Assembly: GCA_015056145.1 (NCBI GenBank)
Contig: SVGY01000014.1
Location: 263 to 64,262, forward strand
DNA: 64,000 nucleotides
From: Clostridiales bacterium
GTDB lineage: Bacteria > Bacillota > Clostridia > Christensenellales > Aristaeellaceae
Direction of reading: 5' to 3'
The notes below the pieces were generated by a model. The model saw nothing but the letters and a program-made list of their open reading frames with translations, was not told the origin of the DNA and made no database searches. The stretch's first letter is position 1. Each line of letters begins with the position of its first letter. Both the position numbers and the translations under genes were made by a program. Of the stretch, positions 38,849 through 56,317 are shown in pieces.

Positions 38849-39676
38849 TCAGATATAGCCCATCAGGCCCCGGACGGATACATCGCCGCTGAGCACCCGG
38901 CGAAGGGAGCCGCTTTCATCACGGACCAGCAATGCGCCGGTTTCGTCCATGGCCTCGGCAGTGCCGGTGAAATTTTCTTCCCGGCCAATGACGTTTACAC
39001 GCCGTTTGAGCGTGGCAGAGCGTTCTGCACAGGCGGCAAGGAGCAGGGCAGGATCACGGGAAAGCATATCCATGCTGGCTTCCATGCTTTCGAGGAAGGC
39101 GGCAAGGAGAGGAAGGGGAGAAGGCGTGATAGCGCTGCCGGATTCCGGCATCGCCATAACAAGAGATGTGGCAGTTCTGGCGATTTCTTCGGGGAAAGAA
39201 TGCTGCGCCACGTTGATGCCAACGCCCATTACCACGCAGGGATTGCCCGCAGGGTCGTATACAAGCTCGCTGAGGATGCCGGTGCACTTTTTGCCTTCAA
39301 GGACGATGTCGTTGGGCCATTTGATCAGCGGTTCCAGCGGCGGACAGAGCTGCCGTACGGCGTCGCATACCGCAAGGGCAGCGGCAAAGGTGCAGAGGGG
39401 AAAATGCTCCGGAGCGATAGAAGGCTTCAGCAGCAAGGAGAAGGTCAGCGTTTCGCCAGCGGCGGAGAGCCAGCTGCGCTGAAGCCGTCCCCGCCCTGCG
39501 GTTTGGCTGTGGCAGATGCAGAGACTGCCTTCGGGCGCACCCTGCTTCGCCAGTTCTTTCAGGCGGCTGTTGGTGGAGGGAAGCTGTTCGTGGTAATCCA
39601 ACAGACCCTTTCCGGCCCAGCCTGTGGGAAGACCGCAGGCCCACTGTTCCGGAGTGATACGGTCAAACAGGCTCAT
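38849..39676 (-). CDS. birA: biotin--[acetyl-CoA-carboxylase] ligase (no N-terminal HTH)
   Basis: Trimmed to MSLFDR at 39676 (ATGA overlap with queH). Signature QTAGRGRLQRSW. Confidence 0.85.
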   Translation of the reverse strand: MSLFDRITPEQWACGLPTGWAGKGLLDYHEQLPSTNSRLKELAKQGAPEGSLCICHSQTAGRGRLQRSWLSAAGETLTFSLLLKPSIAPEHFPLCTFAAALAVCDAVRQLCPPLEPLIKWPNDIVLEGKKCTGILSELVYDPAGNPCVVMGVGINVAQHSFPEEIARTATSLVMAMPESGSAITPSPLPLLAAFLESMEASMDMLSRDPALLLAACAERSATLKRRVNVIGREENFTGTAEAMDETGALLVRDESGSLRRVLSGDVSVRGLMGYI

Positions 39677-40236
39677 GAATTGGCCTCCGTGCATTTTTTT
39701 GCTTTTTTGCGTTTGCGGTAGCGGTCTTCTTCGCTGAAAACGCATCCGCAGTATTTCTGCATATACATTTCAAGCTCCCGGGCCTTTTGCTGGCCTTCCC
39801 GGAAATAAGGCCGGAAGTCCCGGTAGAGAAGCTCCACGCCGTGGGCTTTGGCACGTTCCTCTGCCACCTGCCTGAGCAGCTCGTGGTTTTGATAGGGACT
39901 GATAAACAGCGTGGTGCAGATATGGGTGAAGCCGTTGGCGGCGGCGTACTCTGCCGCTGCATCCATGCGGTGCCAATAGCATTTTACGCAGCGTCCGTCA
40001 ATGTCCTCAGCCACCGCCTGTACAAAGGGCCTGAGGCCGTATTCGCCGTGATCCACCAGCGCAAGGCCGATGCTCTTGGCATAGTCCACAAGGCAGTTTT
40101 TCCGGCTGCGATACTCAGTATAGGGATGGATATTCAGGTTGTCCCAGAAACCTACCGGTTCAATGCCCTCTCCCCTCAGGGTTTCGATGCACATAACGGA
40201 GCAGGGAGCACAGCAGATATGCAAAAGAAGCTTCAT
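39673..40236 (-). CDS. queH: epoxyqueuosine reductase QueH
   Basis: N-terminus LLLHICCAPCS and conserved Cys pattern of the DUF208/QueH family. Confidence 0.85.
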   Translation of the reverse strand: MKLLLHICCAPCSVMCIETLRGEGIEPVGFWDNLNIHPYTEYRSRKNCLVDYAKSIGLALVDHGEYGLRPFVQAVAEDIDGRCVKCYWHRMDAAAEYAAANGFTHICTTLFISPYQNHELLRQVAEERAKAHGVELLYRDFRPYFREGQQKARELEMYMQKYCGCVFSEEDRYRKRKKAKKCTEANS

Positions 40237-40325
40237 GGCCTGACCTCCAAAGTGTTTGTGTATACATCATATCACATTCCTCTGCTACATAGAAAGAAGA
40301 ATTTGTTTTCATTACGGAAAGAATG

Positions 40326-40359
40326 TGGTATAATCAAATTCAGGAATATTTTCCTGAAT
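40326..40359 (+). promoter_or_regulatory. extended -10 promoter plus perfect 9-4-9 inverted repeat (candidate operator) upstream of rubrerythrin
   Basis: TGGTATAAT at 40326-40334. ATTCAGGAA (40338-40346), TATT, then TTCCTGAAT (40351-40359), which overlaps the expected transcription start. Confidence 0.5.
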
Positions 40360-40462
40360 GATGCAAAAAGAAGATACCTTCCCCTCCGATGCATGGAATA
40401 CATATCTGACAGGGAAAAGTATCTGAGGAACGTCTATATTACCAACAAGGAGGAAACAAATT

Positions 40463-41005
40463 ATGAAACCTTTGAAGGGAACCAAAACGGAAGCCAACCT
40501 GATGTCCGCCTTTGCCGGTGAGAGCCAGGCACGCAACAAGTACACCTACTACGCCTCCAAAGCCCGCAAGGAAGGGTATGTGCAGATTGCCAACCTGTTT
40601 GAGGAAACCGCCAACAACGAAAAAGAGCACGCCAAAATCTGGTTCAAGCTGCTCCATGACGGCGATATCCCCACCACCGCCGTGAACCTTGAGGATGCTG
40701 CCGACGGCGAAAACTACGAGTGGACCGATATGTACGCCGGCATGGCCAAGGATGCCTGGGAAGAGGGCTTTGACGAGATCGCCGCTCTGTTTGAGGCTGT
40801 GGCAAAGATCGAAAAGAACCACGAAGAGCGCTACCGCAAGCTGCTCAAAAATGTGCAGGAAGGCATCGTGTTCAGCCGTGATGGCGACATGATCTGGGAA
40901 TGCTCCAACTGCGGCCACATCGTGATTGGCAAGAAAGCCCCCATGCTGTGCCCTGTGTGCAAGCATCCGCAGGCATACTTCATGATTAAGGCCCAGAACT
41001 ATTGA
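40463..41005 (+). CDS. rbr: rubrerythrin
   Basis: Diiron ferritin-like EX2H motifs ([15 protein letters not shown]) and a C-terminal rubredoxin-like CSNCG ... CPVC. Confidence 0.92.
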
Positions 41006-41018
41006 TCTGATGAAATCG

Positions 41019-41067
41019 GCCGTCGGGGCAGCAGGGGGATAACAGGCCCCTGCCATGCCCCGGCGGC
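41019..41067 (+). terminator. GC-rich imperfect hairpin downstream of rbr, without a T-tract
   Basis: GCCGTCGGGGCAGCAGGGGG / CCCCTGCCATGCCCCGGCGGC. Its function as a terminator is uncertain. Confidence 0.35.
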
Positions 41068-41101
41068 TGTTGCATATCGTGGAAATGCGGAGGATGAAAA
41101 G

Positions 41102-42805
41102 GTGCGGGTTGCGCTTATCAATGTAACGGCTTCCGGTGGAACGGGCAAATTCTGCGTGGAGCTGAGCAGGCAGACCATGGAAAGGGGCCATACGGTCCTG
41201 TTTTGTCATGCCCGAAGCCACTGCCCGGGGGATGTGCCGTCCTGCCGGGTGTGCTGGTACAGCGGCGCTTTTGCATTTGTGAAAAGGATTCTCGGCAGCG
41301 GATGGAAGTATATTTCCCGTTTTTTTGGCAGCCTGTGGCGCTATGCCGGGCTGAAATTCGGAAAAACCGGCAGAAAAAAAGCTGCGGAGAAAGGCGAGGC
41401 GGATCTGAAAAACGCCGTTCTTCCCCGCACAGAAGCCCTCCGCAGTGATCTCCCATCCCGGAAACGTCGTGGACGATCGGGCAGGCTGCCTGGCGGCCTG
41501 CGGGTACGGAGCCGTCACAAGCCGGATATAAGAACCCGGATCCAGGACGCAAAAAGAGGGATGGACAAAGGAAAAGTGAAGATGAAGCGGGCCATCCATC
41601 CCCGGACGGAGTTTTTCCGCAGCAATATTAACACTTACACTCATGGGGTCAGGGCAAGGCTTACGGACAGGCAGGGTTTTTTCAGCAAGCAGGCCACCCG
41701 GCGGCTGGTGGAACAGCTCAGAAGTTTTCAGCCCGATGTGATTCATCTGAATAATCTTCACGGATATTATCTGCATATGCCTACACTTTTTTTGTACCTG
41801 CGGGAGGAACAGATACCCGTGGTGTGGACGTTGCATGACCTGTGGGCGGTGACCGGGCACTGCGCCTTCCCCTCTACTGCTGTGGAACCCTTCCTGACGG
41901 ATGCCCAGGAGCAGATGTACCTCAGCTGCGCCGGCGACGCCGCCCGGGAGGCCGAGGTGGATAAGCAGATTTGCCGGGAAGGTTGCCTGCGCTGGCAAAC
42001 CGGCTGCGGGCACTGCGTCATGAAAGGGGAATATCCCAGAAGCTGGTTCCGGGATCAGAGCGCACGGAACTGGCGTGAAAAGCGGGCGCTGTTTTCCGGG
42101 CATCCCTATATGGTGCTTACGGTTCCCTCCCGGTGGATGGAGCAGCAGGTAAGGAAATCTTTTCTTTCCGGATATCCGCTGCACTATATGCCCCACGGGC
42201 TGGATATGAACGCCTACCGGCCCTGCGTGAATGTGGACGAACGCATTGCGCTTCTCAAACGGCTGAAATTGTGGGAAATGCGCTCCAAATATCTGCTGGT
42301 GAGCGTGGCCAGCCTCTGGGAAAGCAGGAAGGGGCTGGAGGATCTGATGGATCTGAAGGAACTCCTGGGAGAAGATTACTGCGTGGTGGCTGTCGGCCTT
42401 GACGAGGATCAGCGGGCAGCCATTCCGGACGGCTCCGTCATTGCCCTGGAGGAAATGGGCAACAGGGCGGACCTGTGCGCCCTGTACACGGCGGCGGACC
42501 TGTTTGTGAGCCTGAGCCGGGCGGAAAGCATGGGTATGCGGCCGCTTCAGGCCATGGCCTGCGGCACGCAGGTGCTCTGCTGGGATGCGACCGCCATGCC
42601 GGAGCTGATTACCAATGACGTTGGCCTGACGGCGGAGCTGGGCAACCTGCAGGACGCTGCGGACAAGGTGCGCTGGTTGTGCGAAAACCCGGCTTCTCCG
42701 GAAGATTGCCGCAGAAGGGCCATGGAATATGAAGCCGGACACAGAAACCGGCAGTTTGTGTACCTTTACGAGGGGATGCATGAAAACGGCCCTGCCGCAT
42801 CCTGA
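41102..42805 (+). CDS. glycosyltransferase (GT4-like) with a ~125-aa Arg/Lys-rich insertion
   Basis: GTG start with a GGAGGA SD. N-terminus VALINVTASGGTGKF. Core motifs PDVIHLNNLHGYY and WTLHDLWAVTGHCAF. The C-terminal half is GT-B-like. Confidence 0.78.
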   Translation: MRVALINVTASGGTGKFCVELSRQTMERGHTVLFCHARSHCPGDVPSCRVCWYSGAFAFVKRILGSGWKYISRFFGSLWRYAGLKFGKTGRKKAAEKGEADLKNAVLPRTEALRSDLPSRKRRGRSGRLPGGLRVRSRHKPDIRTRIQDAKRGMDKGKVKMKRAIHPRTEFFRSNINTYTHGVRARLTDRQGFFSKQATRRLVEQLRSFQPDVIHLNNLHGYYLHMPTLFLYLREEQIPVVWTLHDLWAVTGHCAFPSTAVEPFLTDAQEQMYLSCAGDAAREAEVDKQICREGCLRWQTGCGHCVMKGEYPRSWFRDQSARNWREKRALFSGHPYMVLTVPSRWMEQQVRKSFLSGYPLHYMPHGLDMNAYRPCVNVDERIALLKRLKLWEMRSKYLLVSVASLWESRKGLEDLMDLKELLGEDYCVVAVGLDEDQRAAIPDGSVIALEEMGNRADLCALYTAADLFVSLSRAESMGMRPLQAMACGTQVLCWDATAMPELITNDVGLTAELGNLQDAADKVRWLCENPASPEDCRRRAMEYEAGHRNRQFVYLYEGMHENGPAAS

Positions 42806-42848
42806 TTGGGCCATCAGGAAATATGTTTTGGAAAGGAGAGCGCATTTC

Positions 42849-44900
42849 ATGAAAAAACTGAAATGGCTTTGCCTCATTCTGGCGCTGATGATGTGCCTTT
42901 CCGGCTGTGAGAAACTGAACATTCAGGGGCAGCAGACCGCTACGGCACCCTCGCTGCAGCTTCTGAACATGCCGCCCTATGAGGATGAGGAGGCAGCCTC
43001 TGTGGGCTCTGCCGACGAAGAGGGCAATATGCTGGTGGATCTCTGGATGGATGGCTCGCAGCTTATGGGCGGCATCAACGAGGATCCCACCAGCCTCTAT
43101 CCCCAGACAGGACTTCGTTACCGTCAGGGCGGTTTTCATTACCGGCTTGGCGGAGAGGTGGGCTGGTATGAGGATGTGCTGGGCTGCTTTTTGGAAGCGG
43201 CGGGCGATTCCCGTGTGCGGGTGCTGCGTACCGGCAACGAGCGCATCCCGGACAGTCTGATCACCAGCTATGGCTTCACTGGCACCGAGGAGGAAATGCG
43301 CTCCTATCGGCGGGATCTGATGACCTATGCCATCGATCCCATGCCCAGCATATTTTCCGGGTTTTCTTCGGAAAGTATGGAAAACAGCTTTTATTCCCTG
43401 GGCACGCCCCAGATGAACCAGATGGCCCGCTTTATGGGAAATGGCGGCGCAGATTTGGAAAACCCCGGTAGAACAGAAGAAATGAACGCCCTGCTTACGG
43501 AGTTTGTGGAGGGCTTCCATCAGAAGAACGTACCGCCCCCTGCACAATGGCATGCGGTGGGCAACGACCAGGACAGCCCGCTTTTGTACGCCCTCAGGAA
43601 TCTGGATGTTACAAGGCTTTCTGTTGTTACCTGCGACCCTGCCACCCTCCGCAGGCTTCAGGGCACCCGGGTGGATGGTTCGCCGGTATACTATGTGGAA
43701 GAAATCCTGCGGGAAAGAAAGGCCTTTGATAACGGCATGAGCGTGGGGTTGTATGCTATGCAGCTGGACTATATGGGTCATATGGTCAGTTTCGGTCCGG
43801 CGGATTTTTCGGATTCCCTGATCTGGGGCAAACCGGACTATAACAGCAACACACGGAAAATCAACGGCGTTTTGCCGATGCCCCGGACACTGCTGGTGCT
43901 TGTTATCGGCAGGCCGGAGCAGGTGGAAAGTTATACCGCCGCCCTGAACGCCCAGCTGAATGGAAACCGCAGCCTTTCACAGATGCGTGGCCCGGACGAC
44001 GGCCAGCTCACCTATACTGCCAACAGCCAGACGGTGGTGCAGCAGCCCTTCTATTTTGAATATGAATATACCGGGGTAAAACGCCCGTCGCTGGGATACT
44101 ACACCCATCATACCGCTGGCGCAAAGCTGGAAACCCGCAGCGGCCTTGCCTCCCAGCAGAAGGATGGCCTTGAAATGCTTACCCTTGGCGGAAATGTGGA
44201 CGAAACGCTGGTCTATTCCTGGCCTGCAGAGCAGCTTCCGGACGGCCTGCAGCTGGATCTTTCCACCCTGTCCGGCGCAAGGGTTGAGGTGATTGATTCC
44301 CTGCTGCTTACGCAGATCGTGCCCAACGGCCCGGAAGCCGCTATGGGGGAAAACACGCAGGTGCTCACCCTGCGGGATAAACTGTATTGCTTTGAAAGGG
44401 TGGAATCACCTTTTGAGGGCAAAGAGAAGCAATGCCCCTTTCAACTGGAATCCATCGCCTGGAGCGAGGATGGTTCCCGGCTGGAGGTTCGGGTGAAGGT
44501 GGATCACACCCTGCTGAAAAGCGGGTATTACCGGCTTAAACTGGTGGCGGACGTGACCGGCGAACAGCTGGAATGGCCACTGGTCAGCTGGGCGCAGGAC
44601 GGTACCGGCCTCAGTGTGGAAATATCCAACAGCGAGGTCATTGCATGGGAAAACCTGATGCAGACCCTGACCCGTTACGGTCGTTCCCGCAACTCTATCC
44701 CCACTACTTTCCGGCATGCCTGGGGCAGCTATACGGGCAAGGATTATCAGGGCGTGGAAGTGCCCGATTTTCCGCAGGTGTACAAGGCCCCTGGACTTCA
44801 GCGGCTTTTGGAGCAGATCCGCTCGGCAGCCAACCTGGAAACCGCCCCGCTGATCCGTTGTACCTTTGATGTATTTGTGCCGGAGATCATTGCGCCCTGA
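42849..44900 (+). CDS. lipoprotein of unknown function, first gene of the tubulin-like/actin-like operon
   Basis: ORF 42729..44900 trimmed to ATG 42849 (GGAGAG SD). Signal peptide MKKLKWLCLILALMMCLSGC with lipobox LSGC (Cys codon 42906-42908). Confidence 0.8.
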   Translation: MKKLKWLCLILALMMCLSGCEKLNIQGQQTATAPSLQLLNMPPYEDEEAASVGSADEEGNMLVDLWMDGSQLMGGINEDPTSLYPQTGLRYRQGGFHYRLGGEVGWYEDVLGCFLEAAGDSRVRVLRTGNERIPDSLITSYGFTGTEEEMRSYRRDLMTYAIDPMPSIFSGFSSESMENSFYSLGTPQMNQMARFMGNGGADLENPGRTEEMNALLTEFVEGFHQKNVPPPAQWHAVGNDQDSPLLYALRNLDVTRLSVVTCDPATLRRLQGTRVDGSPVYYVEEILRERKAFDNGMSVGLYAMQLDYMGHMVSFGPADFSDSLIWGKPDYNSNTRKINGVLPMPRTLLVLVIGRPEQVESYTAALNAQLNGNRSLSQMRGPDDGQLTYTANSQTVVQQPFYFEYEYTGVKRPSLGYYTHHTAGAKLETRSGLASQQKDGLEMLTLGGNVDETLVYSWPAEQLPDGLQLDLSTLSGARVEVIDSLLLTQIVPNGPEAAMGENTQVLTLRDKLYCFERVESPFEGKEKQCPFQLESIAWSEDGSRLEVRVKVDHTLLKSGYYRLKLVADVTGEQLEWPLVSWAQDGTGLSVEISNSEVIAWENLMQTLTRYGRSRNSIPTTFRHAWGSYTGKDYQGVEVPDFPQVYKAPGLQRLLEQIRSAANLETAPLIRCTFDVFVPEIIAP

Positions 44901-44924
44901 CGAAACCGCCAAGGAGATGAAAGG

Positions 44925-45581
44925 ATGCAGACCGCTGTAATCACCCCCACGAAGAAGAAAAAGCGTACCCGCATGAGGTACTCCAACCGCTTCAAGGTGC
45001 TTTTGTGCTACCTGGTCAGCTTTGCGTTGCCGCCCCTCTGGCAGTTGGGCAGCCTTTTGCTGATCTATCCCTACCAGCTGAAAAACAGCGCACCGCTGAT
45101 CGCAGAAAATCTGTCTGGCGTTTTTCCTTTTCTGAAAAATATGCTGGAACCATATGTACAGCGGGCTGCTGAACCGGCTGGCGGCCAGTTTTCCGCAGAA
45201 ATGTGGAACCAGGTGCAGCAAAGCAGGGAGAAACAATGGATGCTGTTTTTGCTGGTTCTTTTTGCAGCAGGCTTTGTGCTTACGCTGCTTTTGCAGCTGA
45301 TATGGCGCTGGAGTCATACCCGGGGACTGCAGGGCGCAAAGGCAGTAAATCGTGCCGTGGCCCATTACCGGCTGAGCATGCTGGTGATCCTCCTCATCAA
45401 CGCTGCGCTGGCGGTGGCGGTGTGGCTTTTGGGCGTGCAGTTCATTGCTGGCCGGGGGCTTTGGGATTATCTGACCTATTTCGGCGCTTATGGGCTCAAT
45501 GTTATCGCTGCATTTGTCTGCTTCCGGCTGGCAGCTCCGCCGGCGATCAGCGGCAAAAAGGCGTTCTTTAAACGATTGTAA
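44925..45581 (+). CDS. predicted 4-TM membrane protein of unknown function
   Basis: AAGGAG SD 8 nt upstream. Basic N-terminus (KKKKRTRMR) followed by four hydrophobic segments. Confidence 0.7.
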   Translation: MQTAVITPTKKKKRTRMRYSNRFKVLLCYLVSFALPPLWQLGSLLLIYPYQLKNSAPLIAENLSGVFPFLKNMLEPYVQRAAEPAGGQFSAEMWNQVQQSREKQWMLFLLVLFAAGFVLTLLLQLIWRWSHTRGLQGAKAVNRAVAHYRLSMLVILLINAALAVAVWLLGVQFIAGRGLWDYLTYFGAYGLNVIAAFVCFRLAAPPAISGKKAFFKRL

Positions 45582-45596
45582 GAAGGGAGGGCTTCC

Positions 45597-47714
45597 ATGA
45601 GCTGCTATGTTCTGGCCGTGGGCGGAACCGGCAATAAAATACTGGAAAGCCTTGTCTATTGTGCCGCCATTGACGGTTTTTACACGGTGGATGAGGAAGG
45701 GGCCCGCAGCCCCATCCCCGAGATCCGCATGCTTTCCGTCGATGTGGACAGCGCTTGCGGCAACACAACCCGTGCCAAGCGTGCGGCGGAATATTATGAG
45801 GATATCCGGCAGGCCTACGAGAAGTATCCTGCCCGTCATCCGGGATTCCATACGGCGGTGCTGGCCAGCCGCTGGAATATGAACCTGTCCAAAAGGGCCA
45901 TGTCTGTGGACAAAATGGTGGAAGGCCATCGCAGGGATAAATTGCTCAGCCGAACCATTTTCAGCCGGACGGAATCCTCCCTTGAGTACAGCGAGGGCTT
46001 CCGGGGTCATCCCGACCTTGGTGTACTGTTTTTTTCCGATGTGCTCAATTCTCTGGAACGGCTTCGGGCAGAGGGCCAGCCTGACGAAATGAACGACCTG
46101 CTGGACCGCATCACCGATGAAATGAAGCGGGGAGAAAAAGTGAAGCTGATCCTTTGCGGCAGCATCTTCGGCGGTACAGGCGCATCGGGCATTCCCGCCA
46201 TCGCCAGGTTTCTCAGGGAGTATTTCAGGGACAACAGCCCCCTGTTTGAAATGGCAGCCATGCTGATGCTGCCTTACTACAAGGTTCCGCCATCCTCCCA
46301 GAATGAAGAGATGGAGATCGTGGTGAAGAGCTCCACCTTCCTGGACAAGGCACGCACGGCCCTGCAGTATTACGGTATGGAGGGCATGATACGCTCCGGC
46401 GAAAACGACGAAAAGGGCATCTTTGATGCGCTGTACATGCTGGGCCTGCCTACGGAGGCATTCATCACTACCCGCATCTATTCCACCGGTTCCCAGAGCC
46501 AGGAAAACGACGCACATATGCTGGAATGGCTGGCTACCAGGTGTATATCCCATTTCTTCCGCACCGGCTTCCGGGGCAAGGATGCCCACCACATCGACTG
46601 CTACTATTACCAGTGGCACACGCCTCAGCTGTGCTGGCAGAGCTTTGATCAGGAGGAGGAACTGTACCGCAATGGCTATACCAGCCTCCTGAAGGCGGCG
46701 GCGCTGTTTTTTGCGGAGCTGTACCCCTCTTTGCTGGGCTGTGCCAACGGACACAGAAAGAGCTGTACCCGCATCGGTTACTGCGCACCTTTCTTTTCCA
46801 CATTCCATAAAAAAACCAGCGCGGAGCAGGCAGAACTGGAGAATCTGCTCCAATCGCTGTATCATTTCCTGAATTTCTATTCCAACTGGATGATTCAAGT
46901 GGTGCGCACCATTCCCCCCACCATGAGGGAAAAGCGCATCAGCGAAAACTTGCGCACGGAGGCCGCAGAGAATTATGACCAGCTGGTAAAACGCCGGGCG
47001 CTGCTTACCCAGCGGGAGGAACACAAAGAAGAATCCCGGGCCTGGCAGGAAGAAACCAAGACCTTGCGCAAGGAATACGAGGATATGCAGCAGACCCGCA
47101 GCCAGCTTGCAAAGAAAATCGGCGGATATGCATGGCTGTCTGTGCTGAAGGACGCACAGGACAGCGCCCGGGAAAAGCTGTACCGTCAGGAAGAAAGCAT
47201 TGCAGAGGCAGAAGCCTCCCTGGAACGCATGAACGGCGAAGATGCAGGGCTGGTGGATGCCCAGATGATACGCCAGCAGACGGAACGGCTGGAAACCATG
47301 CGCCGTGCGGCTGTCACCATGGAACTGTGCCGGGAGCAGATCAGCCTGGATATTGAAGCTGCTATCCGGGAAAACGTGGTGCAGCGGGCTCCGGAACAGG
47401 CGGCACAGGATGAGGATGCATTGTCCCGCAACGGCCTGATGGACGCAGCTTTGCTGGAAAAACTCTATCTGTTGCTGAATCAGTACGGCCTGAAACCGGC
47501 CCAGCGCAGCAGCCAGGTTTTTGACGCTGCTGCCATAGAGCTGCAAAAAGGCCTGAACAAAATGAGCATTCAGCGTGTTCCCGACAGGATGGATACCACC
47601 CGGGTTATTGCGGGCCTTGGCGGAGGAACCCTTCGTGGCAGCGGCGCAGAAGGAGCTCTTTGCTCCTTCCTGACAACACTGCTCAGAGCCGTAGGAGAGG
47701 AGGAAGGCCAGTGA
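45597..47714 (+). CDS. tubulin/FtsZ-like GTPase domain protein with C-terminal coiled coil
   Basis: GGGAGG SD. T1-like VGGTGNK (45618-45638), T3-like GFRGHPDLG (45996-46022) and T4 signature GGTGASG (46170-46190). Charged heptad-like region at roughly 47000-47400. Confidence 0.7.
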   Translation: MSCYVLAVGGTGNKILESLVYCAAIDGFYTVDEEGARSPIPEIRMLSVDVDSACGNTTRAKRAAEYYEDIRQAYEKYPARHPGFHTAVLASRWNMNLSKRAMSVDKMVEGHRRDKLLSRTIFSRTESSLEYSEGFRGHPDLGVLFFSDVLNSLERLRAEGQPDEMNDLLDRITDEMKRGEKVKLILCGSIFGGTGASGIPAIARFLREYFRDNSPLFEMAAMLMLPYYKVPPSSQNEEMEIVVKSSTFLDKARTALQYYGMEGMIRSGENDEKGIFDALYMLGLPTEAFITTRIYSTGSQSQENDAHMLEWLATRCISHFFRTGFRGKDAHHIDCYYYQWHTPQLCWQSFDQEEELYRNGYTSLLKAAALFFAELYPSLLGCANGHRKSCTRIGYCAPFFSTFHKKTSAEQAELENLLQSLYHFLNFYSNWMIQVVRTIPPTMREKRISENLRTEAAENYDQLVKRRALLTQREEHKEESRAWQEETKTLRKEYEDMQQTRSQLAKKIGGYAWLSVLKDAQDSAREKLYRQEESIAEAEASLERMNGEDAGLVDAQMIRQQTERLETMRRAAVTMELCREQISLDIEAAIRENVVQRAPEQAAQDEDALSRNGLMDAALLEKLYLLLNQYGLKPAQRSSQVFDAAAIELQKGLNKMSIQRVPDRMDTTRVIAGLGGGTLRGSGAEGALCSFLTTLLRAVGEEEGQ

Positions 47715-50700
47715 AGGAACCGAAAAACAAGCGCCGTATTACCGAGGCAGATAAGGAAATGCTGGATAAGGAAACCCCGTATCTGACCCTGCTGCCTGAT
47801 ATGGACGAGGGCCTGAACATCGGCTACAAGCCTACTCCCGGTATTCAGAGCGACGGCAACCAGAAGCCCATGGAGTGGCTGGATCAGTTTGCCAAATTCA
47901 TCAAAACCCAAGGCGAGGACGTGGGATATTCCATTCCCGATGTGCTGGCCAGCGAACAGCAGCTGCGCCGTCTGGCCCGGCTTCCGGGAGATATTGCCCT
48001 GCGCCATCAGGAAATGGTGGATTACAGGGCGGTGCTTGCTCTGCTCCTTTTGTGGGAAAGCATAGCCGCTGACCCTTCCTGTGCCACGCTGACCATAGAG
48101 CCCATGCTGGAAATGGCGGACGAGGGCAGCTTTATTCACGCCGTTAGCGGCGCACTGCCTGAAAGCCGTGTGCGGGAAGGGTTGTATGTGTTTGCACTTT
48201 CCCGCCCCAAATCTGAAACCCCTGAAAAAACGCCCATCTGCCTGCTTTCCCGCAGTATGGTGCTGATGCCTGCGGCCAACTTGGGGGATCTGAGCAACCT
48301 TCTGCCGCCCTCTGTGGGCTGGTATGACCGCAACCGCAAGCGTTTTACCGACCCCTGCCCCTGGCTGGACGAGGAAATGTGCGCAGTGCTTATCCCCCGG
48401 CTGAGGCTGCTGAAAAGCCTCAACGAAGAGATTGCCTCCAGCTACATCTATTCTCAGGAGGCACAGCTGTGCTCGCTTATCGACCGCTTTATCCGGGATA
48501 TTCTTGCGGGAAGGGAAACCTGGCGGCAAGCCGTCAGAACCGGTGATGAAGAGGCTGCACGGGAACTGCGCACCCGCATTCTGACCATATACGGCCTGGC
48601 AGAGCGGGATCAGCGGTTGCAACTGAATATGTACACCTATCCTGCGGATGCATCCGATGCAGGCAGTAATGTGCTCATGGGTCAATTGATCCATCCGGAG
48701 GAGCCTGCGCCGAAACTGGATGCAGGTGAGGATACGGTGCTCTACACAATGGATGGCGTACCCTTCGCCCGGTTCTCTGCATCTTTCCTGATGGAGCCTT
48801 CCCGTGCCTTTGGCGAGAAGGAGGCGCTTCGCCGTGCAGAGGAAGAGATTGCCCTGCTGGATCAGTATGATGAAGACTGGCGGGCCAATATGGCCAGCAC
48901 ATTGCTGGAACTGTACCAGGACACCCAGGGCAGAACCGGTGTGGATCCGGCGGTTCCGGAGCTCTTGCTGGCGTGGAGCCGGGAATATGCGGCTGCCCCC
49001 CGTTATGGCGACAGCGATATTTTGCTGCGTTATCCGGAGGAAACTTCATCACGCACTCTGTCCCCCTTGCTGGAAAAGCTGTTTGGCCAGGGGGCCGAGG
49101 ATTGCATCCGGGAGCCCTTTTCCGATTGCCTCCTGATGGTGGAAAATGCGGAAACCTGCCCGCTTCCCGGGTGGATGGAGCCTTATTGCAGGCTCCGGGA
49201 TGTGCCCGGAGACCACAGGGTGTATTTTGTGCCGCCCATTTCCAGAGGAATGGCCGCATGGCTTGCCCGCAATGGCGAAAGTAACGATCCTTCCCTGCCC
49301 AGACTGCTGCCGGAAAGCCTGTCCTGCAGGCTTCTGGCAGATCAGCAGCACATTGAAGCAAGCTTTTCCGTTGGTACCCGCAGCGCCAATCAGCAGGGCG
49401 TGCTGGGAAAAGTGAGCTTTGTTCGTACCTACGACCTGCGGGCTCTGCCGGAGGTGGGCGCAGCGGTGACTCTTGCTGCATCTGCTCTGCCCTCGGTTAC
49501 GGTATGGCCCAACATCCGTCTTTCTTCCCAACAGTGGAAGCAGTATTTTGTGCACACCCACGGTGCACATACGCTGGAAGCCTTCACTCTGGACGGTGAT
49601 CAGTGGAAGCGGGGCATTATGCGTTCGGCTCAGGGCTATGACCGGGAGGAAATGAGCCGCCGCAGCTGGCATACTGCCAGAACCACCACCTTCCCGGCCT
49701 ATGTGGCCCTGTGCCGTGGTTCGCTGTGCTTTGGTATGCTGGTGAATGATCTTTCCTGCACACAGCTGCGCTATGAGCAGCCCGCCATCATCAGTGTGGA
49801 CTTTGGCTCCATTGCCACCACCGTGATGATGCGCCAGGGCGACAAGGTTCAGCCGGCCTCCCTGCCAGCCAGCCTGCACGGTGTGCTTCTTTCGGCCACG
49901 GAGGGGCTGGAGGATATCCTCATGGAGGAATTCATCCCCCGCAACGCCCTCACCCCCGGCAGCCCCAGCGAAAGCACCTACTACAGCGTGGTGGACCTTT
50001 TCGGAGAAGGCCCGGCGGATTGGAAAAACGTGCTGGAGGATGGCCATATTTTCTATCCGGAAAGCATGACGGCCTTGATGCGCAAGGATTCCAACACCCT
50101 TTACTACGACCTGAAGTGGAGCGATGAGGAATATGTGCTCAGGTGCCTGAGGCTGTTCCTGAAGCAGATGATGCTGCAGGCATCGCTGGCAGCACGGCTC
50201 TGGGGGTCCGAAAGCCTCAGCTGGCGTGTAAGCGTGCCCGGTGCCCTGCCGCCCCACCGGCAGGAGGCTTATCTGGACATGATGCGTGGCCTTGCCAAGG
50301 AAGTGGCCAAGGAAACGGGCATGCCCCTCAGCAGCGGCTGCCCTGCGGTACTCTATGCGCTGGAAAATCAGGCGGACGGCCTGTACTTCCGTCACCGCAA
50401 CGAGGTGAACGCAGGCAGCGGATACCTGAATCTGGACGTGGGCGGCAGTACCGCCGACCTGAGCCTGTGGCTCCGGGGAGGCAGTCACGCCACGGCGGAA
50501 TGTTCACTGCTGCTGGGTTGCAGGCGGATTCTGTATGCATCCGTGTCCGAAGGGCATATAGAAGATTTTCACCGGGATTTCCTCCGGGGCGACAGCGCTA
50601 TGGTCGGCGCCGCAGCGGGTCTGGTGGAGGAAATGCGCAGCGCAGGCAGCGCCACCCGGGCGCAACAGAAATGCATGCTCCTCATGGACGATTTCTTTGC

Positions 50701-51373
50701 CAGCTACGCAAAACCCATCCGCAAATGCCTTGCGGAATTCCGCTCCCAGGGCCAGATTACCTATACGGAATCGTTGCTGCTGTTCAACTTCGGCTTCCTG
50801 TTCCGGCTTTGCGGCCTGATGCTGCAGCGTTCCTATGAGGATAAGGAACTGCGGGCAAAGCTGCCTCAGCGGGTGGAATTGTGCATTGCCGGCAATGGCG
50901 GTCAGCTTCTGAAAATGTTCTCCCGGGAGCAGATGGAGCGGCTGTGTGGCCTTGCCCTGACCCTTCTGTGCAACCAGCATCCCGTAACGGTGCTGATGCC
51001 GGTGCAGAGCGTTGATCCCAAGCAGGAGGTGGCCCTTGGCCTGCTTCACAGCGAGGGCGATCTGCAAAGTACCCTGCACAGCGTGGAGCGCTGGAATGGT
51101 ACCCTTCTTAGCGAAGACGGCAGAAGCCTCCACGGAGAGGATTCCTTTATGGCGGATTTCCTCCGGGAGTTTGTGCAGGCGTTCCCCCAGGCGGCCAACC
51201 GCATCCTTGGCAACGCCCTGGAAATGGATGACCTTGGGGAAGTGCATCTTGCAGAAGGAGCGCTGATGGAGCTGGAAAACATTCTGGCCAACGAAAACGC
51301 AAAAACGCCCGAAGACAATTTTGGTACCTACATCCGCTGCTTTGCTGCCATGAAGCGGCTTTGGAGGGTGTAA
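47711..51373 (+). CDS. giant protein with C-terminal actin/Hsp70-like (ASKHA) ATPase domain
   Basis: GTG 47711 overlaps the upstream TGA (GTGA), with SD GGAGAGGAGGAAGG. Motifs occur in order: ISVDFGSIATT (49790-49822), ALENQADG (50357-50380), DVGGSTAD (50435-50458), IAGNGGQ (50885-50905). Confidence 0.65.
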   Translation: MKEPKNKRRITEADKEMLDKETPYLTLLPDMDEGLNIGYKPTPGIQSDGNQKPMEWLDQFAKFIKTQGEDVGYSIPDVLASEQQLRRLARLPGDIALRHQEMVDYRAVLALLLLWESIAADPSCATLTIEPMLEMADEGSFIHAVSGALPESRVREGLYVFALSRPKSETPEKTPICLLSRSMVLMPAANLGDLSNLLPPSVGWYDRNRKRFTDPCPWLDEEMCAVLIPRLRLLKSLNEEIASSYIYSQEAQLCSLIDRFIRDILAGRETWRQAVRTGDEEAARELRTRILTIYGLAERDQRLQLNMYTYPADASDAGSNVLMGQLIHPEEPAPKLDAGEDTVLYTMDGVPFARFSASFLMEPSRAFGEKEALRRAEEEIALLDQYDEDWRANMASTLLELYQDTQGRTGVDPAVPELLLAWSREYAAAPRYGDSDILLRYPEETSSRTLSPLLEKLFGQGAEDCIREPFSDCLLMVENAETCPLPGWMEPYCRLRDVPGDHRVYFVPPISRGMAAWLARNGESNDPSLPRLLPESLSCRLLADQQHIEASFSVGTRSANQQGVLGKVSFVRTYDLRALPEVGAAVTLAASALPSVTVWPNIRLSSQQWKQYFVHTHGAHTLEAFTLDGDQWKRGIMRSAQGYDREEMSRRSWHTARTTTFPAYVALCRGSLCFGMLVNDLSCTQLRYEQPAIISVDFGSIATTVMMRQGDKVQPASLPASLHGVLLSATEGLEDILMEEFIPRNALTPGSPSESTYYSVVDLFGEGPADWKNVLEDGHIFYPESMTALMRKDSNTLYYDLKWSDEEYVLRCLRLFLKQMMLQASLAARLWGSESLSWRVSVPGALPPHRQEAYLDMMRGLAKEVAKETGMPLSSGCPAVLYALENQADGLYFRHRNEVNAGSGYLNLDVGGSTADLSLWLRGGSHATAECSLLLGCRRILYASVSEGHIEDFHRDFLRGDSAMVGAAAGLVEEMRSAGSATRAQQKCMLLMDDFFASYAKPIRKCLAEFRSQGQITYTESLLLFNFGFLFRLCGLMLQRSYEDKELRAKLPQRVELCIAGNGGQLLKMFSREQMERLCGLALTLLCNQHPVTVLMPVQSVDPKQEVALGLLHSEGDLQSTLHSVERWNGTLLSEDGRSLHGEDSFMADFLREFVQAFPQAANRILGNALEMDDLGEVHLAEGALMELENILANENAKTPEDNFGTYIRCFAAMKRLWRV

Positions 51374-51390
51374 GGCCTGCTGGACAGAAA

Positions 51391-51431
51391 AGGACTGTTG
51401 CGAAGATTTGCTTTGCAACAGTCCTGTTTTT
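51391..51431. terminator. bidirectional Rho-independent terminator
   Basis: AGGACTGTTGCGAAG / CTTTGCAACAGTCCT stem followed by GTTTTT. A T-rich run is also present on the opposite strand. Confidence 0.8.
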
Positions 51432-51446
51432 ATGCACTCTGTGATT

Positions 51447-52109
51447 TTATTCCATCCACGGATGTCCTGCGGGACATAGTTTCTTCAGTTGAAGCTGAAA
51501 CCATTGCTTTTGCGAAGGAGAAAGTCGGGGATAGACGGCTTGATAATCGCTGGCGGCGGGACCTTCATCGGGACGCAGCGCTTTATACAGCAAAGCCAGC
51601 TCGGGAGCCAGGAAGGGGAAACCTTCGGTTCCCCGGAGCAAAGCCTTTTCTGCGGGCAGGGAAACGGGCGGATTGGCGCTGAAAAGATAGGTATTCGGGG
51701 CTGCGGAGGGGGTAAAAAGAAACTCCAGATAATTCAGTTCCTTCAGCCCTGTATGATAAAACTGATGGTACAGCAGGCCCTCTTCCTCGCTGGGAAAGAA
51801 CTCCACCAGAGAGCAACCCGGCAGAACACACATCAGGTTACGCCCCGGGTCGCTGGCATCGCCCGGCTCCAGCAGGCGAACCTTGCCCTGCCCACGGAAC
51901 TCGTATACCTGCCAGCCGGATTTTTGCATAAAGGCGGGTATTTTGCTCCGGTCGGCTTCAAAGGCACAGAGATCGATATCTCCGTGGGGGCGCAGTTCCC
52001 TGCCAAGAAAGAGCTCCAAAGCAAAGCCGCCGCAGACGGCCCATGAGAAATCGGCAGCAGACAACAGCTTCGCCGCCTGCATAAGCAGAGGATTCATCGT
52101 GGTGAACAC
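51447..52109 (-). CDS. nucleotidyltransferase-fold protein (aminoglycoside/lincosamide NTase-like)
   Basis: N-terminal motif VCGGFALELFLG ... HGDIDL fits the G(G/S)-x(n)-DxD minimal NTase fold. The start is either GTG 52109 or ATG 52097. Confidence 0.55.
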   Translation of the reverse strand: MFTTMNPLLMQAAKLLSAADFSWAVCGGFALELFLGRELRPHGDIDLCAFEADRSKIPAFMQKSGWQVYEFRGQGKVRLLEPGDASDPGRNLMCVLPGCSLVEFFPSEEEGLLYHQFYHTGLKELNYLEFLFTPSAAPNTYLFSANPPVSLPAEKALLRGTEGFPFLAPELALLYKALRPDEGPAASDYQAVYPRLSPSQKQWFQLQLKKLCPAGHPWME

Positions 52110-52135
52110 ATCCCTTCATTCATTGCGGAAAATAG

Positions 52136-52178
52136 GATAAAAGAGAAACACGCAGCCTGTGAATGTGGCAGCGTGTTT
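52136..52178 (-). terminator. Rho-independent terminator
   Basis: AAACACGCAGCC / GGCAGCGTGTTT stem (1 mismatch). A T-rich tract follows on the minus strand. Confidence 0.55.
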
Positions 52179-52183
52179 TGCTA

Positions 52184-53155
52184 TCAATATATGATGCTCG
52201 ATGATTTTGCCAGGCATTTGTCCCGGGCGGCATCCATCAGCAGGAAGAATGCCTGTGCCTCCACGGAATAACCGGGCTTGTTGAAGAATGGAGCGCCACA
52301 TACCGGGGAAATACGTCCATGATCGTCCATGGCGTTTACCACCGAATTAAAGAGGAACTCGGCCTTGGGCAGCCAGTCCTTTTCCAGCCAGCCGTCGGCC
52401 ATGCCACGGTACATGGCGTAGGCAACCATTTGGCTCAGGTTCCATTCCTTGAAACTTTCAGGTTTATCCATGATGTCATGGTAGCTACCGTCTTCGTTCT
52501 GCCAGCGGATCACATCGGCAAGAAGCGCTTTGTTCATGGAAATGAGTTTTTGCCGGTCGCTTTCTTTTTCCGGGGGCAGCATTGCAATGACCCGGGCGAT
52601 ACCCGCAAGAGCCCAACCGTTGCCGCTGCCCCAGAAGGCTCCATCGGCAAATTCTTGCCTGCCTTCATCCCAGATGTGACGGAGGAGGCCGGTTTCCGGA
52701 TCCCGTAGCGCATCGAAGAGGCCGTAGAGCTGATGAAGAGCTTCGTCGTACTTGCCAGCGGCGCACAGGAAAGGAGGCAGCATGTACAGGGAATCATTCC
52801 AGAACTGCACGCCATCGCCAAGGTGAAAGAGAATTCCCTTTTCACTGCGGGGCGCCAGTTCCAGCGACCAGCTCAAAAGTTTTTCAACATTGGTTTTCAG
52901 GTGTTCGTGACCGGGCATGGCCGAAGCAACAATCATTCCTTCGCCACAGGCGCAGGGATCATTCACGGCCGTTTCGCTGCCCATCATGGCAACACGTCCG
53001 TCTTCAAGGCTGCGGTAGGCGGCTTCCTCGGCCATCATGGCCATGGCTTCCAGATCGCCACATTCCAGCAGGGCTTGCATGGCGGTACCCTGCTCCCAGG
53101 AAAAACGCTGCATGCAAAGCATGGCCAGCTTGGCTTTGTCAGCAATGGGGTGCAT
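52184..53155 (-). CDS. glycoside hydrolase family 88/105-like (unsaturated uronyl hydrolase)
   Basis: FWNDSLYMLPPFL and FWGSGNGWALAG motifs are typical of the GH88/GH105 (alpha/alpha)6 fold. Confidence 0.72.
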   Translation of the reverse strand: MHPIADKAKLAMLCMQRFSWEQGTAMQALLECGDLEAMAMMAEEAAYRSLEDGRVAMMGSETAVNDPCACGEGMIVASAMPGHEHLKTNVEKLLSWSLELAPRSEKGILFHLGDGVQFWNDSLYMLPPFLCAAGKYDEALHQLYGLFDALRDPETGLLRHIWDEGRQEFADGAFWGSGNGWALAGIARVIAMLPPEKESDRQKLISMNKALLADVIRWQNEDGSYHDIMDKPESFKEWNLSQMVAYAMYRGMADGWLEKDWLPKAEFLFNSVVNAMDDHGRISPVCGAPFFNKPGYSVEAQAFFLLMDAARDKCLAKSSSIIY

Positions 53156-53181: not shown

Positions 53182-54444
53182 TTATTCTTCAGGTTCCTCC
53201 ACGGGGATGGCGTTATCGCTGACGCCGACGCCAATAAGGGAGGTAACGGTACGCACGAAGGTCTTATCCTTCCACTTGGCCAGGTTGTTCAGCATCCGTC
53301 CACGGAAGATCAGCGCCATGGTATTGCCGCCATCCAGGTTGAAGCCTTCCACCACGCCTCTCTCCAGCATCAGCTGGGTAGGGAAACGCAGACCGGTGCC
53401 TTCGGAATTCTTGGTGCGGCCCTGAACAGAAACCAGCAGGTAATGGTTGGGTTCGATCATGCCAAGAAGCTGGCGGGGGGATTTGGTGTCATAATAGCCG
53501 GCAGGGATGTATTCGTCGATCTGGCCTTCGGAAATGACCACGGGCCCGAAACAGAATACATTCACGGCGCCCAGCGCCAGCAACTCTTCAGAGGTGATGG
53601 TGCTGCTGCGGTAGCATTTGAGCGTGCCATCGGGGAACTGGGCCATCATGTCCAGATTGGGCAGGTTGTGGAGACGCTTGCGGTAGTCGTCATCGCAGAT
53701 GATCTCGCCATTGCGGATGACGATGCCTTCCTGCTCCTTGCGGTTGATGCGGTGGCCGTAGAAGTCGTCGGTAAAGCCGAGGACGTATTTGTTGTTGGTT
53801 GCGATATCGAAGGGGTAGGAAAAACGGGTGCCGGGACGGTCGGGGTTGGTTTCCGTGGTGAGGAACTGCTGTCCGTTGCGCATGAAGATTTCCGTTTCAA
53901 ACCACACCAGCGGCACGGAAGGACGCTCGTAGCGGTTGATAAGGATTTGCAGATCGCCGGAAAGATAGCACCACTGACCGCCTTCGTCATTTTCATAAAA
54001 ATACTCGGAACCGTCGGCAGTATAGCCGGCTTCGTCCAGCTCGGGCACATCGTCCGCCATCAGGGGGCGGGGAGTGGGCAGGGGTTCCGGCGTGGGTTCA
54101 GGGGTGGGGGTGGGCTCCACATAGGGCTGAGCCTGGTCGGAAAAGAGGAAGTCTTTGTCCGCTACGGTAATCACGCCGGTCACTTCCAGACCATTCTGCT
54201 CCTGAAAGGTTTTGACGGTGCGGGTCATGGCGGAGTTGAATTCCCGGTTGAGATTGGTGGTGTTGTAGTAGCCCAGCTCGTAAAGACGCTGCTTGATCTC
54301 TTTGATTTCGGCGTTTTTGTCGCCCTGTTTGTAGAGCACCTTATCGGGCGCAGGGGTCTCTTCAGCTTCCGCACAGGCGGCGCCCACGCAGGCAAGCAGG
54401 GAAAGAATCAGCACGAGAAGGGCAATCAGACGGAATTTTTTCAT
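53182..54444 (-). CDS. secreted peptidoglycan-binding domain protein with phosphodiester glycosidase (NAGPA-like) domain
   Basis: Signal peptide present. PG_binding_1-like segment (IKEIKQRLYELGYY ... TVKTFQEQNGLEVTGV). Pro/Thr/Glu linker. The C-terminal domain ends in FNLDGGNTMALIF. Confidence 0.65.
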   Translation of the reverse strand: MKKFRLIALLVLILSLLACVGAACAEAEETPAPDKVLYKQGDKNAEIKEIKQRLYELGYYNTTNLNREFNSAMTRTVKTFQEQNGLEVTGVITVADKDFLFSDQAQPYVEPTPTPEPTPEPLPTPRPLMADDVPELDEAGYTADGSEYFYENDEGGQWCYLSGDLQILINRYERPSVPLVWFETEIFMRNGQQFLTTETNPDRPGTRFSYPFDIATNNKYVLGFTDDFYGHRINRKEQEGIVIRNGEIICDDDYRKRLHNLPNLDMMAQFPDGTLKCYRSSTITSEELLALGAVNVFCFGPVVISEGQIDEYIPAGYYDTKSPRQLLGMIEPNHYLLVSVQGRTKNSEGTGLRFPTQLMLERGVVEGFNLDGGNTMALIFRGRMLNNLAKWKDKTFVRTVTSLIGVGVSDNAIPVEEPEE

Positions 54445-54447
54445 TTG

Positions 54448-56115: not shown

Positions 56116-56317
56116 GGCGACCTCCTTATGGGGGATATAAGATTCTGTAGCAGCCCTCACCACTGCAAAGCAGTAATAAGCGACTGAAGGAACTCGGTAA
56201 TCAATGGCCTGCACAAAAGATAAAGTAAACATGCAGTACAGCAAAAGCTGTACGCAAAAGAACTTTGAATGGATTTGTACGTCTGGCATAAAGCCAACGG
56301 CCCAAAGATACTACAAT

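Follow-up and report, generated by a model that had tools for sequence, protein, structure and literature searches.

The stretch of DNA analysed here, a 64,000-nt window from a Clostridiales bacterium (contig SVGY01000014.1) to whose coordinates all positions refer, carries an operon of four plus-strand genes at 42849-51373. Direct reading of the open reading frames (ORFs) and their junctions gave the order lipoprotein (gene 1), four-transmembrane (4-TM) protein (gene 2), tubulin-like protein (gene 3) and a giant protein of 1220 aa (gene 4), and the last two are predicted to provide, respectively, a divergent tubulin/FtsZ-superfamily GTPase and an ASKHA ATPase domain resembling the nucleotide-binding domain (NBD) of Hsp70. 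There can be hardly any doubt about the composition and conservation of this module as described below, and the operon is strongly supported as a real, vertically conserved, chromosomal unit. Its conserved core is the tubulin-like/giant pair; which particular lipoprotein and 4-TM families accompany the pair differs from clade to clade. The four products may together form an envelope-spanning, nucleotide-driven scaffold with a housekeeping role, a combined reading to which we assign a probability of about 0.45.

When one genome per GTDB species was scanned by pattern, close orthologues of the giant protein (42-76% identity) turned up at 50 loci and distant relatives at a further 19, and profile hidden Markov models (HMMs) of the four proteins were searched against all ORFs of all loci. 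The close loci came without exception from uncultured Clostridia that bear names such as Candidatus Limiplasma, Christensenellaceae and Eubacteriales. The lipoprotein, 4-TM, tubulin-like and giant genes occurred in the same order on one strand in all 46 close loci with sufficient upstream contig, the other four of the 50 being interrupted by contig ends; the gene-neighbourhood search thus showed the four genes to be neighbours in related genomes, as the module proposed in a preliminary description of this DNA requires.

The gene 3 product is predicted, with strong support, to be a divergent GTPase of the tubulin/FtsZ superfamily of the Tubulin_2/FtsZl1-like type. It matched Pfam Tubulin_2 (PF13809) over residues 8-238 with 29.9 bits against a gathering score of 27 (E 4.5e-7), and Pfam Tubulin (PF00091) with 26 bits, just under the gathering cut-off. 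When 25 family members were scanned separately, PF13809 was matched by 23 (best E 6.3e-11), including relatives of about 20% identity from other phyla, and PF00091 by five, below its cut-off. Because so many relatives match PF13809, the Tubulin_2 assignment is no single chance match, and the tubulin/FtsZ profile match anticipated for gene 3 was in fact obtained above the gathering score. Some orthologues are labelled 'tubulin-like doman-containing protein' by NCBI, and hydropathy revealed no TM segment in the gene 3 product.

The T1-, T3- and T4-like loops first noticed in gene 3 correspond to conserved columns of the family alignment. T1 (GGTG, residues 9-12, within AVGGTGNKIL at residues 7-16) keeps G9, G10 and G12 in at least 90% of the 25 members, among which are relatives of just 20% identity; in the T3-like loop GFRGHPDLG (residues 134-142) the pattern GFRGxPxxG is invariant or nearly so; and in T4 (GSIFGGTGASG, residues 188-198) G188, S189, G192, G193, T194, G195 and A196 are invariant. 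GGGTG(S/T)G is the T4 signature of the tubulin/FtsZ superfamily, and the first G of its canonical GGG is replaced by F in gene 3, as in Tubulin_2. It might be speculated from the alignment that a conserved G-x3-Q-x-N-x5-E block (G298, Q302, N304, E310) is the equivalent of T7. The supposed coiled-coil tail proved to be an insert at residues ~440-610 (window 46914-47426), which is charged, helical, coiled-coil-like and rich in E, R, Q, A and L, and which is followed by an alpha-helical C-terminus. This insert is limited to the forms of ~700 aa and to the distant locus L003, and many close orthologues (520-550 aa) are without it. Apart from L003, the tubulin-like genes of the distant loci also lack the insert, and several of these loci carry instead an extra, separate coiled-coil protein downstream of the giant gene.

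The gene 4 product is 100% identical to the 1220-aa protein P0001, and it showed no TM segment by hydropathy and no match in Pfam (E<=1), NCBIfam, PADLOC or PDB sequences. The AlphaFold2 (AF2) model of residues 26-1220, based on 83 homologues, had a predicted local distance difference test (pLDDT) score of 87 and a predicted template-modelling (pTM) score of 0.76, with pLDDT values of 85-97 across residues ~692-1220. Foldseek comparison of this model with the PDB returned 610 hits with E<=1e-3 (best E 3.4e-8, probability 1.0), and the top hits were Hsp70 NBDs, aligned over ~490 columns with target template-modelling scores of 0.45-0.55; MreB ranked 29th. Comparison with the viral library BFVD gave 20 hits with E<=1e-3, mostly Hsp70.

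The ASKHA motifs had been reported in canonical order with Hsp70-like spacing, and both points held: phosphate-1 (DFGS, residues 697-700), connect (ENQADG, with E885), phosphate-2 (DVGGSTAD, 909-916) and adenosine (AGNGG, 1060-1064) follow one another, and D697-F-G-S, E885, D909-x-G-G-x-T-x-D916 and A1060-G-x-G-G1064 are invariant in the 37 homologues aligned. The spacings from phosphate-1 to connect, connect to phosphate-2 and phosphate-2 to adenosine are 188, 24 and 152 aa, compared with 163, 23 and 144 in E. coli DnaK. Model and motifs together give strong support to the prediction that the last ~530 residues of the giant form an Hsp70-NBD-like ASKHA ATPase domain with intact catalytic motifs. 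The N-terminal ~690 aa contain helical, alpha/beta and beta-sandwich domains with no known-family match, and one distant homologue of the giant had a sub-threshold match to Pfam FtsA (E 7.6e-4; 20 bits against a gathering score of 31.8). Matches to both nucleoside triphosphatase (NTPase) folds initially proposed for the operon were recovered, but the label 'cytoskeletal' given to the two of them may be too strong; the similarity of the ASKHA domain to Hsp70 NBDs is no smaller than that to MreB or actin.

Outside the clade of the window, 16 distant loci, drawn from Cyanobacteriota, Acidobacteriota, Pseudomonadota, Actinomycetota, Bacillota and Gemmatimonadota, have a tubulin-like gene (490-620 aa) upstream of a giant gene (~1040-1250 aa) in the same orientation, and wherever the giant gene was intact the two were immediate neighbours. 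The same pair is present in L003, and a marginal match cut by a contig end (L068) represents a seventeenth distant locus. Most relatives of the gene 3 product are 500-550 aa long. In 10 distant loci, a protein of 440-520 aa encoded upstream has a lipobox Cys and the motif I/V-D-(G/A)-S-G-S-M-x-G ... (V/I)TDLE, and a polytopic membrane protein of 130-225 aa with a conserved tail of the form (S/T)P...P...G...R is encoded between the distant lipoprotein and tubulin-like genes. The four-part layout therefore recurs across phyla, and it is annotated as hypothetical only. A full four-gene version (L073 2090-8920; AP017960.1) is located on the 138-kb plasmid1 of the cultured cyanobacterium Picosynechococcus sp. 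NIES-970, where genes NIES970_27680-27710, all annotated 'unknown protein', encode a lipoprotein with IDASGSM, a 169-aa TM protein, a 503-aa tubulin-like protein and a 1093-aa giant. A profile built on an alignment of shorter giant homologues was searched exhaustively against 1.84 billion representative proteins (50% identity clusters) and found relatives of the giant in 1189 clusters at E<=1e-3, of which 779 reached E<=1e-10 and 198 reached E<=1e-30.

Further genes accompany the pair in some distant loci. In cyanobacterial operons, a conserved fifth gene lies downstream of the giant gene (L055 11887-12975; the C4 family in L060-L063), and its product of ~320-360 aa (663 aa in L063) is hydrophobic near the N-terminus and has no Pfam match. 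An Hsp70-like gene directly follows the giant gene in L072 (12183-13811), L068 (4347-5936) and L071 (3117-4687), which come from Gemmatimonadaceae, Thermoanaerobaculia and Nitrospirae, so that these three loci encode two Hsp70-fold proteins each. The L072 copy (~540 aa), the one scanned of the three, matched Pfam HSP70 with E 7e-75.

Several observations tie the two NTPases to each other. The stop of the tubulin-like gene overlaps the start of the giant gene in 13 or more of the close-type loci and also in L003, and the pairwise distance matrices of the two proteins were correlated with r=0.98 overall and again with r=0.98 for the 17 distant loci alone (Mantel p~5e-4). Furthermore, about 27 of the best 150 giant relatives are fusions of 1635-1771 aa, in which a region of ~600 aa stands N-terminal to the giant part (P0082-P0085 and ~23 more, including P0363 and P0367-P0373; locus L001 4363-9606). 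About half of the fusions match the tubulin-like profile directly (HMM E 4e-10 to 8e-4), and for the fusion P0084 hhalign aligned 370 columns collinearly with the tubulin-like family (E 1e-4), with a probability that reached no more than 57%. In all fusions GGTG is degenerate (G-[D/S/E]-x-A) and no T4 signature is left, and the N-terminal region looks like an inactivated GTPase domain retained as a structural module. These fusions of a tubulin-like region to the giant argue that the two proteins work together physically. In P0411 (902 aa), a tubulin-like domain with intact motifs (E 8.5e-96) runs into the N-terminal 350 residues of a giant, which may reflect read-through or a frameshift at the overlapping stop and start or may be a true fusion. 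Adjacent, often translationally coupled, co-inherited and sometimes fused, the tubulin-like/ASKHA pair is, as judged from these comparisons, strongly supported as the old core of the module.

The product of gene 1 begins with MKKLKWLCLILALMMCLSGC and has a signal peptide and the lipobox LSGC with Cys20, and no hydrophobic segment was found beyond the signal peptide by hydropathy. Its length of 683 aa is shared by P0088, a protein of 99% identity, so that the in-frame ATG at 42729 is not the start used in homologues, and the initial identification of a 683-aa lipobox lipoprotein can be retained. The AF2 model (pLDDT 90, pTM 0.83) consists of an N-terminal alpha/beta domain (approximately residues 60-380), which carries VDLWMDGSQLMGG, followed by beta-sandwich domains; Pfam, NCBIfam and PADLOC gave no match. 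The window lipoprotein and the distant DxSxSM lipoprotein family (C2) are homologous by profile comparison (hhalign probability 93%, E 3.3e-7). In the distant orthologues the motif I/V-D-(G/A)-S-G-S-M-x-G and the later (V/I)TDLE resemble the metal ion-dependent adhesion site (MIDAS) of vWA domains, a hint at motif level only, and in the window lipoprotein the MIDAS-like motif is degenerate (D-G-S-Q-L-M).

The gene 2 product has a strongly basic N-terminus and, by hydropathy, three strong hydrophobic segments plus one weaker N-terminal one. Its loop charges (+8, 0, +4, 0, +4) follow a positive-inside pattern, and ~4 TM helices with the N- and C-terminus in the cytoplasm are predicted, in line with the first description of this protein as a 4-TM protein of 218 aa with a basic N-terminus. 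A conserved C-terminal tail reads AAPPAISGKxAFFKRL, and searches of Pfam, NCBIfam and PADLOC were negative. Homology between this 4-TM family and the small TM proteins of the distant loci found no support, as hhalign was not significant (probability 1.6%), so that the two are equated by position and topology only.

The features of the operon and its immediate surroundings are listed in Table 1. A Shine-Dalgarno site precedes each of the four genes. Gene 1 starts at ATG 42849 with GGAAAGGAGA ahead of it; its TGA (44898-44900) is separated by a 24-nt gap containing AAGGAGA from ATG 44925 of gene 2, and the TAA of gene 2 (45579-45581) by a 15-nt gap containing GAAGGGAGGG from ATG 45597 of gene 3. 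The stop codon of gene 3 (47712-47714) overlaps GTG 47711 of gene 4 as GTGA, with GGAGAGGAGGAAGG just upstream. After the TAA of gene 4 (51371-51373) follow the hairpin at 51391-51425 and GTTTTTAT; among the terminator-like sites of the 12.8 kb that were scanned (39500-52300) this hairpin is the strongest, and no comparable site was found within the operon in that scan. The co-directional ORFs, gaps, overlap, hairpin-free interior and single closing hairpin with T-run recorded in the preliminary description were all confirmed by reading the junctions and by the hairpin scan.

Table 1. Features of the four-gene operon and its boundaries in the 64,000-nt window
Feature	Position	Strand	Basis
Gene 1, lipoprotein, 683 aa	42849..44900	+	ORF; 683-aa homologue P0088
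Gene 2, small polytopic membrane protein, 218 aa	44925..45581	+	ORF; hydropathy
Gene 3, predicted divergent tubulin/FtsZ-superfamily GTPase, 705 aa	45597..47714	+	PF13809 match
Gene 4, giant cytoplasmic protein, 1220 aa	47711..51373	+	ORF; 100% identical P0001
Predicted ASKHA (Hsp70-NBD/MreB-like) ATPase domain of gene 4, residues ~692-1220	49784..51370	+	Foldseek on AF2 model; motifs
Intrinsic terminator, 15-bp stem, 5-nt loop, T-run	51391..51431	+	Hairpin scan; direct reading
GT4-family glycosyltransferase gene, upstream of operon	41102..42805	+	Pfam Glycos_transf_1, Glyco_transf_4

The GT4 gene ends 44 nt upstream of the lipoprotein gene on the same strand, and it may be co-transcribed with the operon, outside the conserved core; this is uncertain because a weak 7-bp hairpin between the two genes (42800-42819) overlaps the GT4 stop codon. 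Two long antisense ORFs, 44406-47546 (minus strand, 1046 aa) opposite the tubulin-like gene and 40439-42922 (minus strand, 827 aa) opposite the GT4 gene, were set aside as probable high-GC artefacts because the plus-strand genes that they overlap have conserved homologues or Pfam matches. An ORF of 914 aa at 53443-56187 (plus strand), antisense to the NAGPA and RNase J genes and without a Pfam match, likewise resembles a spurious GC-rich ORF. Elsewhere in the window, a 1324-aa protein encoded at 18224-22198 (plus strand), adjoining plsX and smc, has a C-terminal PQQ/BamB-like beta-propeller, and its first ~1100 residues are without a Pfam match. Scanning the window for Rfam families and tRNAs gave no matches.

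FtsZ and FtsA, encoded by adjacent genes, are a tubulin-fold GTPase and the ASKHA/actin-fold ATPase that holds it at the membrane. The present operon likewise has tubulin-superfamily and ASKHA genes side by side, and the only weak sequence matches of the giant family to known proteins are to the phosphate-2 region of FtsA. However, the gene order is reversed, there is no Pfam match to FtsZ_C or FtsA and there are no dcw neighbours; the giant lacks the 1C subdomain and amphipathic helix of FtsA, is three times its size and is closer to Hsp70 NBDs, and a lipoprotein and a 4-TM protein stand in place of divisome partners. The relation to FtsZ-FtsA is one of analogy, not of membership. With Hsp70/DnaK, the ASKHA domain of the giant shares the fold (probability 1.0), the four motifs and a similar spacing; in contrast, the giant has no substrate-binding domain or lid and no Pfam HSP70 match, is only ~13% identical and carries the N-terminal extension of ~690 aa.

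The closest published counterpart of gene 3 is the FtsZl1 family, to which PF13809 Tubulin_2 corresponds; Makarova and Koonin (2010, PMC2875224) predicted that this family makes up a 'membrane remodeling' machinery together with a vWA protein and other membrane-associated partners. The domain order of gene 3 fits that of FtsZl1, with an N-terminal GTPase domain that has inserts between T1 and T4, then a coiled-coil-like region and an alpha-helical C-terminus; like FtsZl1 it lies beside genes for membrane-associated or secreted proteins and is unlikely to be a division FtsZ. The two nevertheless differ in several respects. Classical FtsZl1 proteins have 900-1200 aa, and gene 3 encodes 705 aa, with most relatives at the shorter length given above and free of the coiled-coil insert. 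The hallmark COG2304 vWA partner was undetected here by Pfam, PDB profile and fold, a MIDAS-like motif in the distant orthologues being the only hint of it, and the S/T kinase, novel divergent P-loop GTPase and OmpA/MotB partners are absent from the operon and its flanks. Conversely, the constant ASKHA partner of ~1100-1200 aa found here is not in the text of Makarova and Koonin; the FtsZl1 operon amb2957-2961 of M. magneticum includes a 1626-aa DnaK-like gene, listed in their supplement only and undiscussed in the text (PMC2875224). Our literature searches retrieved no description of a four-gene module with tubulin-like and Hsp70-like proteins, and no functional study of Tubulin_2/FtsZl1-type tubulins was found in the literature searched. 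The earlier statement that no characterised system has this gene set therefore stands in that PADLOC, Pfam, NCBIfam and the literature gave no named match, but the pairing itself has precedents in amb2957-2961 and in the systems of Kaur et al. (2020) discussed below.

The following arrangement may account for the four products. Their division between outside (lipoprotein), membrane (~4-TM protein) and cytoplasm (the two NTPases) is strongly supported as a prediction. The tubulin-like GTPase and the ASKHA ATPase would assemble, regulated by nucleotides, at the inner membrane face, and the 4-TM protein would tether this assembly and couple it to the lipoprotein on the outer face. Such an arrangement would resemble FtsZ held at the membrane by FtsA and would correspond to the 'FtsZl1-centred membrane-associated complex' predicted by Makarova and Koonin (2010). 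This mechanism, a membrane-associated NTPase assembly tethered to an outer lipoprotein, is put forward tentatively. The likely role would be housekeeping organisation or remodelling of the envelope or membrane, neither cell division nor classical defence, and a housekeeping role is favoured by the setting in the core genome, by conservation that is strictly vertical within one clade and by the absence of effector domains and PADLOC matches. The envelope-anchored module joining both NTPase folds that had been suggested at the outset is supported by the fold matches and by the conservation of the neighbours: matches to the tubulin/FtsZ and ASKHA folds were recovered, the four genes stay together in relatives, and no named system was matched.

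The following results weigh against the proposed scaffold. The profile of the gene 3 family compared with PDB sequences found only the T4 region of CetZ (3zid) at E 1.3, which is not significant, and the T6-H7/T7 elements were not found in FtsZl1 by Makarova and Koonin (PMC2875224). Aligned with canonical Hsp70 by hhalign, the giant family matched at phosphate-2 alone (E 0.009, probability 5%), and the best PDB sequence match of its profile was the phosphate-2 region of FtsA at E 2; because profile comparison aligns only phosphate-2, the ASKHA assignment is drawn from the AF2 model and the motifs. For gene 1, neither fold comparison (Foldseek with the pLDDT-90 model) nor profile comparison gave a significant PDB match, and a vWA identity of the lipoprotein was not supported, there being no Pfam VWA match in the window protein or in 10 distant orthologues, no significant PDB match for the profile of either lipoprotein family and no significant Foldseek match. 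Physical contact between the outer and inner components is inferred from gene order alone. Finally, the plasmid copy and the patchy distribution across phyla would also fit a conflict system.

A conflict system of the anti-phage or abortive-infection type, related to the GTPase-centric predicted conflict systems of Kaur et al. (2020; eLife, PMC7159879), would use the NTPases as NTP-dependent assembly or thresholding modules, the lipoprotein as a sensor of an invader or of envelope damage and the TM protein to disrupt the membrane. The published systems are built on TRAFAC GTPases, GAP1 and FNIII proteins, and NTP-dependent assemblies close to the membrane have been predicted for them. These GAP1-N2 systems resemble the present operon in their use of tubulin domains fused to coiled coils, of vWA-type membrane proteins outside the cell and, in variants of another kind, of HSP70 without the peptide-binding domain (PMC7159879). 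The MIDAS-like DxSxSM motif of the distant lipoproteins speaks for such a relationship, as does the scattering of the module over phyla with a plasmid-borne copy in Picosynechococcus NIES-970, and the fusions with a degenerate GTPase region recall the inactive enzyme domains common in such systems. However, the TRAFAC GTPase with zinc ribbons, GAP1 and FNIII are absent from the four proteins, from the flanks and from the conserved neighbours of the distant loci, and tubulin and HSP70, stated to be non-overlapping themes in PMC7159879, are always paired here. Moreover, no effector-type domain was recognised in the conserved neighbours (window flanks and distant loci), and neither an effector domain nor an effector-associated domain (EAD) belongs to the module. 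PADLOC-DB v2 gave no match with E<0.05 for the four proteins, its only hits being weak coiled-coil similarities (E 0.07-0.4), with weak SMC-like ones within the coiled-coil-like insert of gene 3. The window is core chromosome (PlsX, SMC, RpoB, RNase J, BirA, QueH, rubrerythrin, GT4), and housekeeping flanks with upstream synteny across ~46 species of one clade are unusual for defence islands. We consider a conflict system unlikely. A defence-island setting was rejected on account of the housekeeping neighbours and the absence of PADLOC or phage matches for the module, and the flanking genes, as had been remarked before, are not classical defence-island genes.

The NTPase pair might instead organise glycosyltransferase-dependent synthesis or export of an envelope glycopolymer or surface layer, with the lipoprotein binding the product outside. 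This assembly scaffold draws on the GT4 gene, which immediately precedes the operon, in the same orientation, both here and in ~30 related loci, and on the GH88 and NAGPA/PG_binding protein genes near the window operon. Two distant Clostridia-type loci (L001 and L003) have a sugar nucleotidyltransferase upstream instead of GT4, with or without an epimerase, preceding the fusion or the pair, and a VanY/PG_binding gene and one for a polysaccharide pyruvyl transferase lie close by in L003. Yet GT4 is absent from one subclade that retains all four genes, and no sugar-metabolism genes are conserved neighbours in the Cyanobacteriota, Acidobacteriota, Pseudomonadota, Actinomycetota and Gemmatimonadota loci. 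As BirA, QueH and rubrerythrin are equally syntenic upstream in relatives, where downstream neighbours vary, the association with GT4 may just mirror inherited gene order, and a glycopolymer scaffold appears quite improbable.

It is also decidedly doubtful that the giant is a specialised Hsp70-type chaperone or remodeller, which would spend ATP on the assembly, disassembly or regulation of the membrane complex or the tubulin-like GTPase and would have no filament-type function, for although Hsp70 NBDs were its top structural matches in two libraries (PDB and BFVD), its catalytic motifs and their spacing are Hsp70-like and a canonical Hsp70 is encoded directly downstream in three distant loci, the operon provides no Hsp70 substrate-binding domain, J-domain partner or GrpE partner, and the giant has an N-terminal region of ~690 aa unlike that of any chaperone and no Pfam HSP70 match.

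Returning to the envelope-spanning scaffold, the module is a sharply bounded version of the predicted FtsZl1-type systems, with an Hsp70-NBD-like protein of ~1100-1200 aa as a constant and previously unrecognised partner. The pairing spans six phyla, from gut Clostridia to cyanobacteria, and is backed by fusions and correlated divergence. A bolder possibility, which we hold with considerable reserve, is that the tubulin-like/giant pair is an unrecognised cross-phyla NTPase machine wired via the TM protein to a MIDAS-type lipoprotein, and that it transmits force or assembly state outward or senses the surface and responds by polymerisation in the cytoplasm; if true, bacteria would possess a cytoskeleton-like or signalling system of a new class, separate from the divisome, from FtsZl1/vWA systems and from GTPase-centric systems. 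The plasmid copy in cultured Picosynechococcus offers a possible experimental host. The operon thus represents a compact, testable four-gene unit that may shed light on what non-division bacterial tubulins do and on whether tubulin-fold and actin/Hsp70-fold NTPases cooperate outside the divisome.

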